From assembly GCA_049521795.1 (NCBI GenBank), contig JBEKOM010000007.1:1-64000 (forward strand): a DNA stretch of 64,000 bases, in the 5' to 3' direction. Source of the stretch: Candidatus Bathyarchaeia archaeon. Its GTDB lineage: Archaea; Thermoproteota; Bathyarchaeia; Bathyarchaeales; Bathycorpusculaceae. This document shows, piece after piece, positions 10,990 to 52,500 of this stretch (position 1 is the stretch's first letter; each line of letters opens with the position of its first letter). The notes below the pieces were generated by a model that did not search any database, was not told the DNA's origin, and saw only the letters and a program-made list of their open reading frames with translations. Made by a program: the position numbers and the translations under genes.

Positions 10990-11026
10990 CTTCACGTACT
11001 CTCTTTCCAATTTACTAGTGGGCGTG

Positions 11027-11057
11027 GAGTAAAGTTTTGTCCCCAAACCCCAAACCT
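11027..11057. repeat. Dispersed core site copy A (GAGTAAAGTTTTGTCC) plus CCCCAAACCCCAAACCT arm
   Basis: 14/16 identical to the cores at 29028 and 31078. The arm is the reverse complement of the AGGTTTGGGG flank at 29021. Confidence 0.6.
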
Positions 11058-28290: not shown

Positions 28291-28929
28291 CTAGCCGTCG
28301 AGCTGTGGAATTCGCCGAGCCAGTTCGACCCAGTTTTCAGCAACGATCTTTCTTATTAGCGGTTTGAGACCAGCAAAAACCTGTGGCGGCATAAGAGTCA
28401 TCCAACCCTTTGTAATTACAACCCTGTCATCAAGGCTAAGCAAGGGGAACAGCCACTCAACTAGAGTTGGGAATCTTTCAGGCGGCACTTTTTTTGACAT
28501 GAGGCCAACAATGGAGGCCTGTTCGCTCTCTGTTGTTCGTTCTCTCAGGATCGGATACAGATGAGCGTCTTCTTTGTCCAAATGAATTCTCAGATGCGAA
28601 GCTAGGACTGCTGTCGCCCTCGCTGTTGTCAGAGGATCAGGTGCTCTTCGCATTGCTTCCAGCCCACTAACCATGGTGTCAAGCTCACGGTGATCCATGA
28701 AGTAAGCCTCCGCCACAAGAGGGGTTACATTGTCAACAGCGGGAAAAACCGCCGCCTCCTCGCCCCTAGCGTGATAGTCCAAAATCTCGCCCATAATATG
28801 AAGTCGATCCAAAACGGCAGTTAGATCCCCGCCACTACGTGCTATTTTGAAGACTGAATCATCAATCTGGAAAATATCACGACGAAACGCATTATGAATA
28901 GAGCGCACTATGTCAATCGGTCCAGACAA
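28291..28929 (-). CDS. Hemerythrin-like (HHE) domain protein
   Basis: HNAFRRD, HARGEE..VFP, DHREL, HLDKED..LYP. Confidence 0.88.
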   Translation of the reverse strand: MSGPIDIVRSIHNAFRRDIFQIDDSVFKIARSGGDLTAVLDRLHIMGEILDYHARGEEAAVFPAVDNVTPLVAEAYFMDHRELDTMVSGLEAMRRAPDPLTTARATAVLASHLRIHLDKEDAHLYPILRERTTESEQASIVGLMSKKVPPERFPTLVEWLFPLLSLDDRVVITKGWMTLMPPQVFAGLKPLIRKIVAENWVELARRIPQLDG

Positions 28930-29580
28930 AGATTCACACCCACATTTGAAAAGTCACGTCGAGTATAAAGATATGTTGCTGTAGTTCCACAGTCAGAAAA
29001 ATCGAATTTTTCTTAGTCTCAGGTTTGGGGTAAAGTTTTATCCAACCAACCAACCATTACGGACGACGACGGACGACGACGGGCCAACGACGGACGACGG
29101 AAACGATAAACGCACGACGGAGGATGGAAGGGAGGATGGAACAAAAGTGCTTTTCAACGTTAAGAAATGTATATCTTAAGCTCTTCTTAAGACGTACATT
29201 TCACAAACAGGGATGGACGGTGCTCTTACTTCATGTGCGAAAGTGTAAGAGAATTGAGTAAAAGGCTTTATGCCACTTGCCAATGAACTTCTGCCGATAG
29301 GAATGTGTCGCGCGCGCTTGAAGTCTATCTGGGATATGACCAAGAAGCACAAGATCAAGCAATGGAGATCAGTGAATGATTTCGCGCGCTAAAATTGCTG
29401 AAGCATCTTGCGCGCGCTAAAAGTCTACGGAGAGCAAATAGAGCATTTGAATCCAGAAGAGCTTGCCAATCTAGTCAAGATCTGCGGTTTTCTTATGCAG
29501 ACCAAAGTCTACCTATTCTGGAAGACCTGCGATAGGTAGTTTCCCGACCTCAGATACAACGTGTGCGGTCGCTCTTTGCT

Positions 29581-29754
29581 CTAGTCTATCTCGCCAGACC
29601 CCTCACATCTTGGGCAGGTAACTTCTCCAGAACCGCCACAACGACTGCATTGCTTTGTGTGGTCACTAAGCAAATCGACCTTCTCACCATATCCGCTGCA
29701 GCTCTTGCAGCTGACAGTCCCTTTGCCATCACAGCGAGGGCATGTTCTGACCAT
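29581..29754 (-). CDS. Stand-alone DnaJ-type CxxCxGxG zinc-finger protein (57 aa)
   Basis: MVRTCPRCDGKGTVSCKSCSGYG...CSRCGGSG..TCPRCEGSGEID*, with GGTGA SD. Below ORF-track cutoff. Confidence 0.85.
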   Translation of the reverse strand: MVRTCPRCDGKGTVSCKSCSGYGEKVDLLSDHTKQCSRCGGSGEVTCPRCEGSGEID

Positions 29755-29901
29755 TATCGTTCACCATGTCTACATTGGCATGCAGTATAACTGCATTTAT
29801 GATTTTCTATATTCCCAAGTATTGAGCTAGACACGTGGAAGAGCAGACATCAACGACCGATAGCGTGCGCGTTAACTTGACCAACTCTCTTTTCGGTAGC
29901 G

Positions 29902-30954
29902 CTAGCTGGTCAGTTCCTTGATTTTCTTGAAAATGTCTTGAGCATAAATCTTTGTTCCGCAATGATCACATCCAGTTTCATTTCCTTCACTTGGCATATT
30001 GACGGGTCCATTACAATGAGGACACCTCAGCGTTGTCAATACCATTCCTCCTTTCTCCATCAACGATCTAAGTGAAGAGAAATCCAGCACAATCGACTTT
30101 TTCTCCTTCTGTAGGATAATCTTGTCTCTAAAGTCCTTCTTAATAGATGACCCACCATCATATGTGTACTTCACATTGTCCGCATAGACATACACATTAT
30201 CGGATCCGTTGATGGCAAAATCCTGAATGGATTGCAGCGCAAATTCCCTCTCTGGCTTGATAGATTTGACTTCGGATAACTGGAGAGCAAAATCCAGCGC
30301 ATTTGGCATTGATCCATCCTTCTTCGCAAAAAACTCTCTTTTCAAAACAGCAAGCCTCTGATTGGTGAGAACATATATGCATTCGCCAGAATAGAATAGA
30401 TCGCCCTCGCCCTCATTTGCGGTCTTCACTATGTATTCTCCAGCTTTCAAGGCCACTTGGTCTCTCCATGGTGGAGGTGGCGGTCTAATGATCGTGCCGG
30501 GCGCACGCGGAGCAAGTCCATTCTCTTGTTTGTAGGCAGTTTCGAGGCTTTCGGCCAGCCTCTCTTCTGAAAAATCAGCAAAGGAAAGGCGTATTTCGTC
30601 AAACTTGCTGGTCTCACTATGAGGCCAGATCCGTATGAAGTCAGCGTGAATGTCCAATGGGATAATACTCGTTTCTCCAGGACCTAAGTCTGCTGTCCAA
30701 GAATTTTCCTTGTTCTTCCAGAACCGCAGATCTTCCCTCTTGTAGTTAAACTCGTAAATCTTGAGTTTGTAGCCAACTCCTTTGCAGAATTCGTTACAGA
30801 CTTTCTTGATGGTTCGACTGTATTGTCTGATCGCTTGGTTTTTCTTCTCGATCTCTTGTACCACTTTCTCTTCTTTTTCTCTTTCAAGCCTCTGCGCGTC
30901 TTCTTTGAGATTTCTGAGGCGGTCCCGAAAGCTCATTTCTTTCACTTCCATCAT
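29902..30954 (-). CDS. Hypothetical protein: coiled coil, Pro-rich linker, PH-like domain, C-terminal Zn ribbon
   Basis: Charged N-terminal helix, PPPPPW, YVLTNQRL (bPH-like), CPHC...CDHC. Confidence 0.7.
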   Translation of the reverse strand: MMEVKEMSFRDRLRNLKEDAQRLEREKEEKVVQEIEKKNQAIRQYSRTIKKVCNEFCKGVGYKLKIYEFNYKREDLRFWKNKENSWTADLGPGETSIIPLDIHADFIRIWPHSETSKFDEIRLSFADFSEERLAESLETAYKQENGLAPRAPGTIIRPPPPPWRDQVALKAGEYIVKTANEGEGDLFYSGECIYVLTNQRLAVLKREFFAKKDGSMPNALDFALQLSEVKSIKPEREFALQSIQDFAINGSDNVYVYADNVKYTYDGGSSIKKDFRDKIILQKEKKSIVLDFSSLRSLMEKGGMVLTTLRCPHCNGPVNMPSEGNETGCDHCGTKIYAQDIFKKIKELTS

Positions 30955-31126
30955 TCACGATATTCGACTGACGACTTATTTATTGTTAATGGAGGAGTTC
31001 AAAGCGCAGCGCGCGGTGCGCGCGCGATACCTGTCCACCAACCGTCCGTCGTGGTCGTCGTCGTCCGTCGTTGGTTGGGGTAAAGTTTTATCCTTACTCA
31101 GTGCACTTGTCGGGTAGGGATTTCAA

Positions 31127-31822
31127 GTGACCATGGAGATTTTTCCGTTTTCTCTTGGGTTTAATGATTGTTACGTTGTCCAGGATCAAGGCGTCATAAT
31201 GATTGATGCTGGTGTGCCTGGTAAAAAAACTGATTTCGTAAGAGCGATGAAGAATATTCGAATGGAACCCCAAGACATCAAGCTAATTGTTATTACGCAT
31301 GGGCACCCAGACCACATGGGTTCTGCCAAGGACATAAAAGAAATCACGGGAGCTAGAATCGCTATGCATCAACTGGACAAGGTGTGCCTCGAAACTGGAA
31401 CATGGAATACCACGGGACACAGGCTCAAGGGCACAGGTTTTTGGAGCTCGATAGCTGCAGGAATATCCAATTCATTTGTCGACCTGCGCCATTCCAAAGT
31501 TGCCGCTTGCGACGTAGAAGTCACCATTGATGACACAGGTGCGGACTTGGCAAATTATGGAATTCATGGGCAAGTGGTCTACACTCCTGGACACGCCGTA
31601 GGGTCACTTAGTGTGCTCTTGGATTCAGGAGAGGCTTTTGTCGGAGATCTTGCGATGAACAAGCTTCCGTTGAGACACAATCCAGGGCTACCGGTCTTAG
31701 CCGACGACATGGAGAAGGTAAGGGAAAGCTGGAGAAAATTGTTGAAACTCGGTGTTACAACGGTCTACCCTGGACATGGAAAACCCTTCTCAGTGGAAGT
31801 CATAGAAAAGGTTTTGAAGTAG
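31127..31822 (+). CDS. MBL-fold metallo-hydrolase
   Basis: IDAG, THGHPDHMG, TPGH, GD, PGHG. Confidence 0.92.
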   Translation: MTMEIFPFSLGFNDCYVVQDQGVIMIDAGVPGKKTDFVRAMKNIRMEPQDIKLIVITHGHPDHMGSAKDIKEITGARIAMHQLDKVCLETGTWNTTGHRLKGTGFWSSIAAGISNSFVDLRHSKVAACDVEVTIDDTGADLANYGIHGQVVYTPGHAVGSLSVLLDSGEAFVGDLAMNKLPLRHNPGLPVLADDMEKVRESWRKLLKLGVTTVYPGHGKPFSVEVIEKVLK

Positions 31823-32019
31823 CGCGCGCTTCGAGGGGTCGTGTGGAATCCAAATCGTATGAAGAATGTTGATGTGCTCTCCGTTTTTGGTCCTGGAAAC
31901 CCGCTGCCGTTCTTAGGCTCAATATTTCGGGTCAGTTCTGGCAATTCATAACGTTTTAGTGGCTCTGGCTCAGAAGTGAGTGCAGCGTTCGACGCGTTTG
32001 ACGAGAGAACCGTGATGGC

Positions 32020-52383: not shown

Positions 52384-52500
52384 GGGACCGTTTGGGTCTT
52401 GGGGTTTTGGGTGGTAAAGTTCTATCCAACCCACCAACAACGGACGACGACGGACTACGACGACCACGAACCACGACGACGACCACGACGGACGACGGTT
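52384..52500 (+). repeat. Dispersed core site copy D with G-rich left arm and CCAA/(GAC)n right arm
   Basis: TGGTAAAGTTCTATCC (52412-52427), then AACCCACCAACAACGGACGACGACGG... Confidence 0.7.

Follow-up and report, generated by a model that had tools for sequence, protein, structure and literature searches.

A promoter-like junction repeat as a probable seam between gene modules in a genus of peat Bathyarchaeia

The window analyzed in this study comprises the first 64,000 nt of contig JBEKOM010000007.1 of a Candidatus Bathyarchaeia archaeon (assembly GCA_049521795.1) and contains a 2-kb unit (29027-31093) that is bounded at both ends by the same short sequence. The source genome (2.44 Mb, 69 contigs) is designated G000 here, and coordinates preceded by a contig number (C1, C2, etc.) refer to it unless another genome is named; related genomes are numbered from G001 onward. 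A preliminary description had proposed the unit as a new mobile element. We found that the observation behind this proposal is real and that the idea is partly right: the unit belongs to a larger system and is not a lone new transposon. The sequence at its ends is a junction repeat that occurs about 40 times per genome in one genus of peat Bathyarchaeia.

The 2-kb unit and its contents

The exact direct repeat flanking the unit is 19 nt long, TTGGGGTAAAGTTTTATCC, and a repeat search of the window places it at 29025-29043 and 31075-31093, both on the plus strand, in agreement with the duplication originally seen at 29027 and 31077. The left copy contains a 17-nt core at 29027-29043, and its outer flank has just GGTTT of the G/T tract that is usual at such sites. 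Inverted arms lie just inside the two copies. The left arm (29044-29125, plus strand) begins with AACCAACCAACC, comprising (AACC)3, and continues as a (GAC)n tract with a period of about 10 nt (spacings of 10, 10, and 11). The right arm (31036-31076, plus strand) is its inverted, complementary copy and reads (CGT/GTC)n followed by GGTTGGTT. The arms are 76% complementary over 25 nt (29046-29070/31054-31078) and fully complementary over two stretches of 16 nt (29066-29081/31056-31071 and 29084-29099/31059-31074). Both the inverted AACC/(GAC)n ends and the strand asymmetry noticed earlier are thereby confirmed, with T making up 4.9% of the left arm and A 7.3% of the right arm.

The left arm is followed by an overlapping segment of 87 nt (29114-29200, plus strand), which is 95% identical to C3:185885-185971 and carries a hairpin with 17-nt arms at 29164-29202. 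The left arm and this segment together (29044-29200) recur at C3:185825-185971, again with 95% identity. The C3 locus (185808-186143) is a gene-less unit of 300 nt between a core and a variant core, with the same two arms. In both copies (29114-29202 and C3:185885-185971) the 87-nt segment contains two GGAGGATGG words besides the hairpin with its 17-nt arms, one difference between the copies changes an A-C mismatch to a G-C pair, and a short ORF (open reading frame) spans 45 aa in the window and 28 aa at C3, where it was read by hand. The segment may encode a small RNA or act as a terminator.

We found no convincing gene between 29126 and 29560. A gene scrap on the plus strand (29423-29524; 34 aa, 59% identity) corresponds to the C-terminal end of a provirus ABC-type ATPase. 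The full gene is located on the same contig (C7:76422-77882) in a head-tailed provirus, where it adjoins two tandem tyrosine recombinase genes with a tail-fiber-like gene near by, and a homologue is present in the provirus of G001. On contig C32 of G002, a scrap of the same ATPase is found between an arm-plus-core of this type and a recombinase gene. Two ORFs follow on the minus strand. The first (29581-29754; ORF list and Pfam) encodes 57 aa with a CXXCXGXG zinc finger, and its DnaJ_CXXCXGXG match of 26.7 bits is under the cut-off of 32.7. The second (29902-30954) is an orphan of 350 aa with a C-terminal zinc ribbon, and a TATA-like sequence, AATAAATAA, was seen by eye about 30 nt upstream of its start. 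The zinc-ribbon matches at its C-terminus are weak, and no Pfam family was detected at E 0.01. Its N-terminal half has no relative in the genus, where relatives are C-terminal only, and no homologue of the protein was found in the viral loci examined. Among 5.8 billion protein clusters the protein has seven matches, of which one is its own sequence and six are proteins of 192-224 aa that align to no more than 54% of the query. The zinc-finger ORF and the zinc ribbon of the first annotation are thus recovered as sub-cut-off and weak matches, respectively, and one gene scrap is now assigned to a provirus ATPase; the ‘PH’ label was not confirmed.

Runs of (GC)n are clustered at 31004-31026, with further runs at 29309-29317, 29383-29389, and 29410-29417. 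The GC motifs reported from the unit are hence present, but they are a genome-wide feature and not peculiar to it. There is no recombinase ORF within 29027-31093, in line with the lack of a transposase or integrase stated before, and an Rfam search gave just two sub-threshold chance matches. The unit is thus a mosaic that combines the scrap of a provirus gene with two orphan genes. It is flanked on its outer left side by a hemerythrin-domain gene (28291-28929, minus strand) and, on its right side, by a gene for a metallo-beta-lactamase-fold (MBL) protein (31127-31822, plus strand) that lies outside the unit and whose stop codon overlaps a (GC)4 run (31822-31829).

Distribution and anatomy of the junction repeat

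The 17-mer core has four matches in the window at up to three mismatches (0.09 expected), a number reached in 0 of 100 shuffles. The two members outside the unit, which the preliminary description had not connected with it, are both on the plus strand with two mismatches and are located at 52411-52427, with an AACC/(GAC)n arm downstream as in the 2-kb unit, and at 11026-11042, with a CCCAAA-type tract downstream. G000 as a whole contains eight exact copies, 23 at up to one mismatch, 35 at up to two, and 53 at up to three, where about 5.6 matches are expected by chance (own arithmetic). All real-looking copies are intergenic. Local sub-families of core variants are found at C5:7607-9578 and at C3:185058/186127.

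Forty relatives were searched with the inner 15-mer at up to one mismatch, with the reversed pattern as control. The 15-mer is present in 21-41 copies in six genus genomes of at least 1.8 Mb (32 in G000), in 2-4 copies in four fragmentary genus genomes, and in 0-2 copies in the 30 genomes of other genera, one of which has six; the reversed control gave 0-3. All 10 other genus genomes searched contain the core, which is invariant over 11 genomes of the genus, at protein identities of 57-95%. One genome per prokaryote species was scanned, which yielded at least 117 stretches with the core. Among the 80 matches listed, 68 have Bathyarchaeia or Bathyarchaeota titles, including every multi-copy row, and the remaining 12 are single matches in unrelated organisms. 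The metagenome runs that contain the window sequence stem from peat, soil, and wetland. Because one fixed sequence occupies at least 35 sites and recurs throughout the genus, the 17/19-nt repeat is not a target duplication but a member of a conserved family. The casposon-like reading of the unit as an insertion with a long target-site duplication and terminal inverted repeats (TIRs) is therefore not supported, as the repeat is a pre-existing sequence with eight exact and 35 near copies in the genome.

The core was also found in viruses. Eleven IMG/VR contigs contain the exact 17-mer, and seven of these, at 44-53% GC, show typical flanks; among the seven, genes for a large terminase and a portal protein were identified on L246 and a tape-measure gene on L247. 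The other four matches (30-37% GC, no typical flanks) were taken as chance. Large terminase and portal genes are likewise present in the G001 provirus. A role of the core as the attachment (att) site of such viruses is not supported, since it is located only at the left edge of the G001 provirus; no core at up to four mismatches was found at the right edge, and the corresponding empty place in G002 is without a core. Part of the head-tailed provirus with the full ATPase gene lies just beyond the end of the window, at C7:73642-79986 (locus L236, 9642-15986). It encodes tandem tyrosine recombinases of 421 and 493 aa (46% identical), a 487-aa ABC-ATPase with a GNAT-like part, and a 481-aa tail-fiber-like protein. 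An array of cores (C7:65338-72854) lies directly beside it, and a related provirus of 33 kb is found beside the RIO kinase gene in G001.

A logo of 77 sites (G000 and G002 loci, up to two mismatches) shows that the core is the center of a compositional palindrome of about 40 bp. The element consists of about 11 nt that are G/T-rich and C-poor (C 1-13% at positions -11 to -1), the core GGGGTAAAGTTTTATCC, and about 10 nt that are C/A-rich and G-poor (G 1-10% at +17 to +26). The core itself is quasi-palindromic, with 14 of 18 positions palindromic by eye. At many sites the flanks extend into long low-complexity tracts, namely (TTTGGG)n, (GGTT)n, (GA)n, (GAA)n, or (GT)n upstream and their complements downstream; (GAC)n, (TC)n, and (CCCAAA)n are examples of the extending tracts, and a second tract layer of (CGT)n or (GAC)n is frequent. 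Among the runs of at least 45 nt in G000, six of 22 G-less and nine of 20 C-less runs are within 150 nt of a core. The AACCAAC-(GAC)n ends of the 2-kb unit are one arm type of this general pattern, and the same type is present at 52411 in the window and at C3:185808, C11:102113, and C11:103123. The 2-kb unit has TIRs, whereas other core-bounded units have dissimilar arm types at their two ends. With an identical core at both ends and arm sequences solely on the element side, its geometry is that of attL and attR. The proposed reading as att cores with arm sites thus retains its geometric part, direct cores with inward arms, but no integrase could be tied to the cores. Single-strand folding exceeds that of shuffles at one of five sites, with z values of +0.6 and +0.9 at the two sites of the unit.

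Two sites deserve separate mention. A variant core, GGGGGCAAACTTTACATC, at C1:608926-609059 (locus L234) has 61 nt without C followed by 73 nt without G, and is located about 300 nt downstream of a gene for a XerA-like integrase that is not conserved in the genus. Pairs of cores just 10-14 nt apart, with flank repeats alone between them, occur at C2:12440-12491 and in contigs of the metagenome runs X1 and X2. These tandem cores fit none of the models considered below.

The core resembles a promoter. In a genome promoter logo built from the upstream regions of 846 G000 genes, AAA occupies positions -5 to -3 before TTTA[TA], and the box mostly starts 45-40 nt before the start codon. The core in plus orientation reads AAAGT-TTTAT and matches this logo of a transcription factor B recognition element (BRE) and TATA box; an A-rich BRE directly upstream of a TTTAWW box is also evident from the 77-site logo. 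At the right junction, the MBL start codon is 40 nt (GTG) or 46 nt (ATG) after the TTTAT of the core. MBL homologues with a core 34-73 nt upstream are present in contig L037 of a strain with 98.5% identity, in contig L038 of a relative with 92% identity, and in G002 (64% protein identity). The core is retained with these homologues while the upstream neighbors differ. The right core is therefore a probable BRE/TATA of the MBL gene. Over G000, with genes of at least 100 aa, the downstream gene is co-oriented with the core in 21 versus 8 cases at up to two mismatches (p 0.024). A by-eye count of about 33 of 41 co-oriented cases, based on ORFs of at least 70 aa, was not upheld with this gene set. 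Taken by its sequence, the core is most likely a working promoter that starts transcription of the adjoining gene.

Modules bounded by cores in related genomes

We compared G000 with 18 loci of G002 (46 cores at up to three mismatches) and with 17 loci of G001, a single contig of 2.35 Mb (34 core matches at the same threshold, with one palindromic site counted on both strands). Three core-to-core blocks are shared between genomes and stand in different neighborhoods there. Block C1:552666-553278 corresponds to G002 L031:2275-2887 (92% identity), where it adjoins a block that in G000 is part of contig C6. Block C3:179598-180255 corresponds to G002 L031:13380-14041 (95%). Block C1:552257-552689 corresponds to G001 L256:4044-4483 (89%), and its right neighbor differs between the two genomes. 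The ends thus pair around variable cargo, as anticipated: cores bound differing modules in G000, G001, and G002, and the arms travel with the cargo.

Two clear pairs of empty and occupied sites, compared at single-base level, were found for the repeat family. In the first, a single core at C2:12475, with a decayed core and 10 nt ahead of it, joins two flanks that in G002 (L036) are found at cores 7190 and 3362, with 3.8 kb and an extra core between them. In the second, a single variant core at C6:85975 corresponds to a module of about 1 kb in G001 (L257), which starts with a G-less tract, ends with a C-less tract, and has a copy of the core on each side. This is the geometry of the 2-kb unit. 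G002 shows a third state at the matching site, with another module. An inversion adjoins a core in G002 L028, and pairs of cores occur in both direct and inverted orientation. Of the internal block ends in the G002 comparison, 18 of 86 are within 30 nt of a G002 core (1.9% of positions), and in the G001 comparison nine of 91 are within 20 nt of a G001 core (0.9% of positions). Core-bounded modules differ between sister species by gain, loss, and relocation, and the breakpoints fall at or next to the core. We infer from these alignments that the module differences arise through recombination at the cores, driven either by short homology or by a site-specific enzyme.

The surroundings of the 2-kb unit are variable as well. 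The interval adjacent to the RIO kinase gene differs in G001, G002, G005, and G006: it contains the 33-kb provirus in G001, regulators in G002, and aEF2-like, glycosylase-like, and flavodoxin genes (names by eye) in G005 and G006. The hemerythrin protein is 90.5% identical to that of G005, against 61-74.5% for the neighboring RIO, isochorismatase-family, and Xaa-Pro peptidase proteins. Because of this difference, the hemerythrin gene is probably a recent arrival, which suggests transfer between species of the genus. In G005, the hemerythrin and MBL genes form a tandem pair without a core in another neighborhood, and in G000 the MBL gene stands across the unit from the hemerythrin gene in opposite orientation. 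The strain contig L037 has the same unit and right junction and diverges right after the MBL stop codon, inside the (GC)4 run. Contig L038 has a different module at the same core. In both contigs the MBL gene is followed by another core in opposite orientation. For the 2-kb unit itself, no empty site was found in G001, G002, G005, G006, and one metagenome scan (L037, L038), so that the single-core sites predicted for relatives were recovered for the family and not for this unit.

Metagenome contigs of four DNA runs were compared at the unit, where the core region is a high-depth repeat. The predicted circular junctions did not appear, as no circle or excision junction was found in these contigs. 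Seven skip joints have sides of 20-25 nt, are attributable to repeats or other organisms, and were not accepted as evidence for excision. In run X4, the contigs of a relative include the cupin, hemerythrin, and MBL genes and lack 29564-31033; as none of them spans that stretch, they were not used as evidence either.

A family of GNAT acetyltransferases of about 180 aa is expanded in G000 (C10:300-935, C15:354-986, C7:71250-71857, C3:59206-59805, C12:43527-44066, and C14:20806-21366), with 69-89% nucleotide identity to contig L038. At least one of these genes (C7:71250-71857) lies behind a core (C7:71135), and one is found upstream of the MBL core in L038.

Runs of (GC)n are strongly over-represented in G000, with 417 occurrences of GCGCGCGC versus 29.5 expected, and 491 of 935 GCGCGC occurrences are in the intergenic 14% of the genome. 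They gather just past stop codons: 158 of 549 are within 30 nt of a 3′ end, versus 48 of 507 for 5′ ends. The count of block ends close to a run does not support them as seams, because the 18 of 86 found within 20 nt are about as many as expected for ends in intergenic DNA. Only the seven ends of G000/G002 homology blocks that are at most 1 nt from a (GC)n run in both genomes are suggestive, and the break in homology between G000 and L037 is inside such a run (31822-31829). By position, the (GC)n runs may be a 3′-end signal or a second kind of seam. At least two further repeat families resembling miniature inverted-repeat transposable elements (MITEs), of about 180-210 nt with at least 10 copies each at 72-89% identity, are common to G000 and G002 and adjoin some cores (for example C1:546650-546848, C9:9684-9909, C5:49192-49416, C2:171675-171866, and C1:301524-301705). 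The gene for tRNA-Val(CAC) at 2585-2680 in the window was called with 96 nt, which is longer than usual, and may contain an intron.

Explanations for the junction repeat

The explanation that we favor, with moderate confidence, is that of a promoter-like, genus-wide junction repeat at which gene modules recombine. A core with BRE/TATA anatomy would start transcription of the adjoining gene. As the same sequence heads about 40 single-gene units in flexible islands and in head-tailed viruses, it also acts as a seam for deletion, insertion, movement, and inversion, as seen in the comparison with sister species, with recombination that may be homology-driven or site-specific. The 2-kb unit is then one core-to-core segment in a hypervariable spot by the RIO kinase gene, composed in order of a repeated arm with the 87-nt segment, a provirus ATPase scrap, and two orphan genes that presumably read leftward from an upstream region of their own, and the right core would serve the MBL gene outside the unit.

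Several observations weigh against this explanation. The statistics on co-orientation of core and downstream gene are weak, as significance is lost at up to one mismatch (10 versus 7) and at up to three (27 versus 16). With 8 of 41, cores are also found between convergent genes about as often as in the background (518 of 2573), both values coming from crude ORF calls, and the left core of the unit faces into gene scraps and not toward a gene. Block ends would tend to fall between genes in any case, and with an intergenic share of about 14% of the genome as baseline, their excess at cores is modest. Since the alignments run through alike cores, they locate a break no more precisely than to the core or its immediate vicinity. 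The comparisons moreover span species with 6-15% nucleotide divergence, and differential deletion from long ancestral arrays may also produce the differences.

A less probable alternative is an integron-like cassette system in which the core is the crossover site of a recombinase encoded elsewhere, and modules leave as circles carrying arm-core-arm and enter other cores; the promoter likeness would then supply each captured gene with its own expression signal. This would account for direct cores with arms on the inner sides only, as expected from integration of a circle into a bare core (the 2-kb unit and G001 L257), and for the three states at one backbone site (C6:85975) in three species. 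The direct and inverted pairs, the inversion by a core in L028, the invariance of the core in 11 genomes with proteins of 57-95% identity, the local sub-families of variants (C5:7607-9578 and C3:185058/186127), and the presence of the core in the viruses of the group are also consistent with it. In its most far-reaching form, which we put forward as a tentative proposal, the genus and its head-tailed viruses would share a new cassette platform, unrelated to IntI/attC, in which single genes with a promoter-bearing recombination core of 17 bp and strand-asymmetric arms would be excised as circles and captured at other cores by a putative recombinase, giving an integron-like system for shuffling genes and exchanging them between viruses and hosts.

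The search for such an enzyme speaks against the cassette system. G000 has 10 tyrosine recombinase matches, none of them in the 2-kb unit. Two XerA-like proteins are 53% identical to each other and have homologues in one of 40 relatives (G026 only). The 421/493-aa pair beside the C7 core array represents a provirus-linked family present in three of 10 genus genomes, and the 493-aa family was not found in the core-rich genomes G001, G008, and G009, which have 27-37 cores each. No Y1 transposase (PF01797) match was obtained in G000, whereas the control matched in six of 14 genomes, and no serine recombinase was found in G000. Cas1 is represented in G000 by three fragments with open frames of 39-90 aa (C10:61693-61890, C2:288413-288541, and C1:550689-550805), two of which are within 2 kb of cores. 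The recombinase or Cas1 gene that had been expected to be linked to the ends was thus not recovered: in the tyrosine, serine, Y1, and Cas1 searches, no recombinase family tracks the cores across the genus genomes, and Cas1 is present as fragments only. Neither a circle nor an excision junction was seen, and the tandem cores 10-14 nt apart are unlike products of core-by-core excision.

The likeness to integrons has limits of its own. The archaeal integrons in print, as outlined by Ghaly et al. (2022, PMC9668308), use canonical attC sites. Measured against that outline, both systems have single-gene modules separated by one recurring short site (arrays here are spaced by 0.4-2 kb), the same module in different neighborhoods, and single versus occupied sites in relatives. 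Unlike the sites in that outline, the core is conserved in its 17-nt sequence and not in a folded structure (one of five sites folds better than shuffles), and it is located 5′ of genes and is promoter-like, whereas the cassettes of integrons typically have no promoter and carry attC on the 3′ side; the modules here occur in both orientations, and no linked integrase was found.

The attC boxes R″ and R′ have the consensus RYYYAAC and GTTRRRY, and inspection of the core sites revealed no such boxes. A canonical integron is not supported. In the pdif modules of Acinetobacter plasmids, XerC/XerD sites flank discrete gene modules. As in these, many copies of a short quasi-palindromic site bound recurrent modules without an internal recombinase. 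The 11-6-11 Xer architecture, with two arms of about 11 bp around a spacer of 6-8 bp, is not evident in the core, however, the XerA-like genes of G000 are not conserved across the genus, the units are chromosomal or viral and archaeal, and the arms have no counterpart in pdif modules.

Somewhat less likely still is that the core is only the promoter or operator of a regulon, in which the palindromic site for a genus-specific regulator overlaps a BRE/TATA, and has no role in recombination; the islands would rearrange anyway in intergenic DNA, with every module starting at its own promoter. The core indeed fits the promoter logo and stays with the MBL gene in four contexts, 14 of its 18 positions are palindromic by eye, its copy number is stable across the genus, and the enrichment of block ends is modest against the intergenic baseline. 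A pure promoter is disfavored because cores sit between convergent genes at chance frequency, and they also occur beside gene-less units (C3:185808-186143). Three blocks with both ends in cores in both genomes and two insertions with direct core copies versus a single core also speak against it, and it leaves the strand-asymmetric tracts on both sides unexplained.

Repeats with a promoter are known from haloarchaeal virus HF2, for which intergenic repeats of 29 and 58 bp are described in outline (PMC8707807). As far as that description goes, they are similar in being repeated intergenic sequences with an AT-rich, promoter-like center before many genes of an archaeal replicon, and they differ in that the core is common to host chromosome and viruses across a genus, has strand-asymmetric flanks, and coincides with seams of rearrangement. 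The repetitive extragenic palindromes (REPs) and bacterial interspersed mosaic elements (BIMEs) with REP-associated tyrosine transposases (RAYTs) also form dozens of short palindromic intergenic repeats that are often paired. The core differs from these in its AT-rich, TATA-like center versus a GC-rich stem and in its location mostly on the 5′ side of genes, and G000 has no Y1 transposase. A REP/RAYT system is not supported.

A non-autonomous transposon of casposon-like type, with (AACC)(GAC)n TIRs and a target duplication of 17-19 nt, is very improbable. As in casposons and other transposons with TIRs and target duplications, the ends of the 2-kb unit are inverted and enclosed by a direct repeat of about 15-19 nt, and the gene-less 300-nt unit C3:185808-186143 with the same arms resembles a MITE beside a longer relative. 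The flanking repeat is fixed and pre-existing, however; the ‘duplication’ has one sequence at at least 35 sites and in every genus genome. The cores flanking the C3 unit are inverted and not direct, and one is a variant, other units have dissimilar arm types at their two ends, and neither a transposase nor an intact Cas1 was found, Cas1 being present as fragments only, so that this reading is largely refuted. Least likely of all is an assembly artefact in which contigs of a metagenome bin were misjoined at a short repeat: in peat metagenomes the core region reaches very high depth and is a place where contigs end, but contigs of other runs, which may include the source sample, cross both junctions unchanged (X3 record 19, 28681-29148; X1 record 5, 29143-31163), L037 crosses the right junction, G001, a single 2.35-Mb contig, has the same architecture, and the repeat is just 17-40 nt long.

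Bathyarchaeia are among the most abundant archaea of sediment and peat and are uncultured, and to our knowledge almost nothing is known about how their flexible genomes are built up. In full-text literature searches, no paper on an element of this kind in Bathyarchaeia was found. If confirmed, the promoter-like junction repeat at which gene modules recombine would be a marker for islands of accessory genes and a candidate strong promoter for genetics in Bathyarchaeia, and it would be a test case for whether promoter repeats may replace dedicated recombination sites in the evolution of gene cassettes. If a dedicated enzyme exists, the integron principle would have been invented independently a second time.

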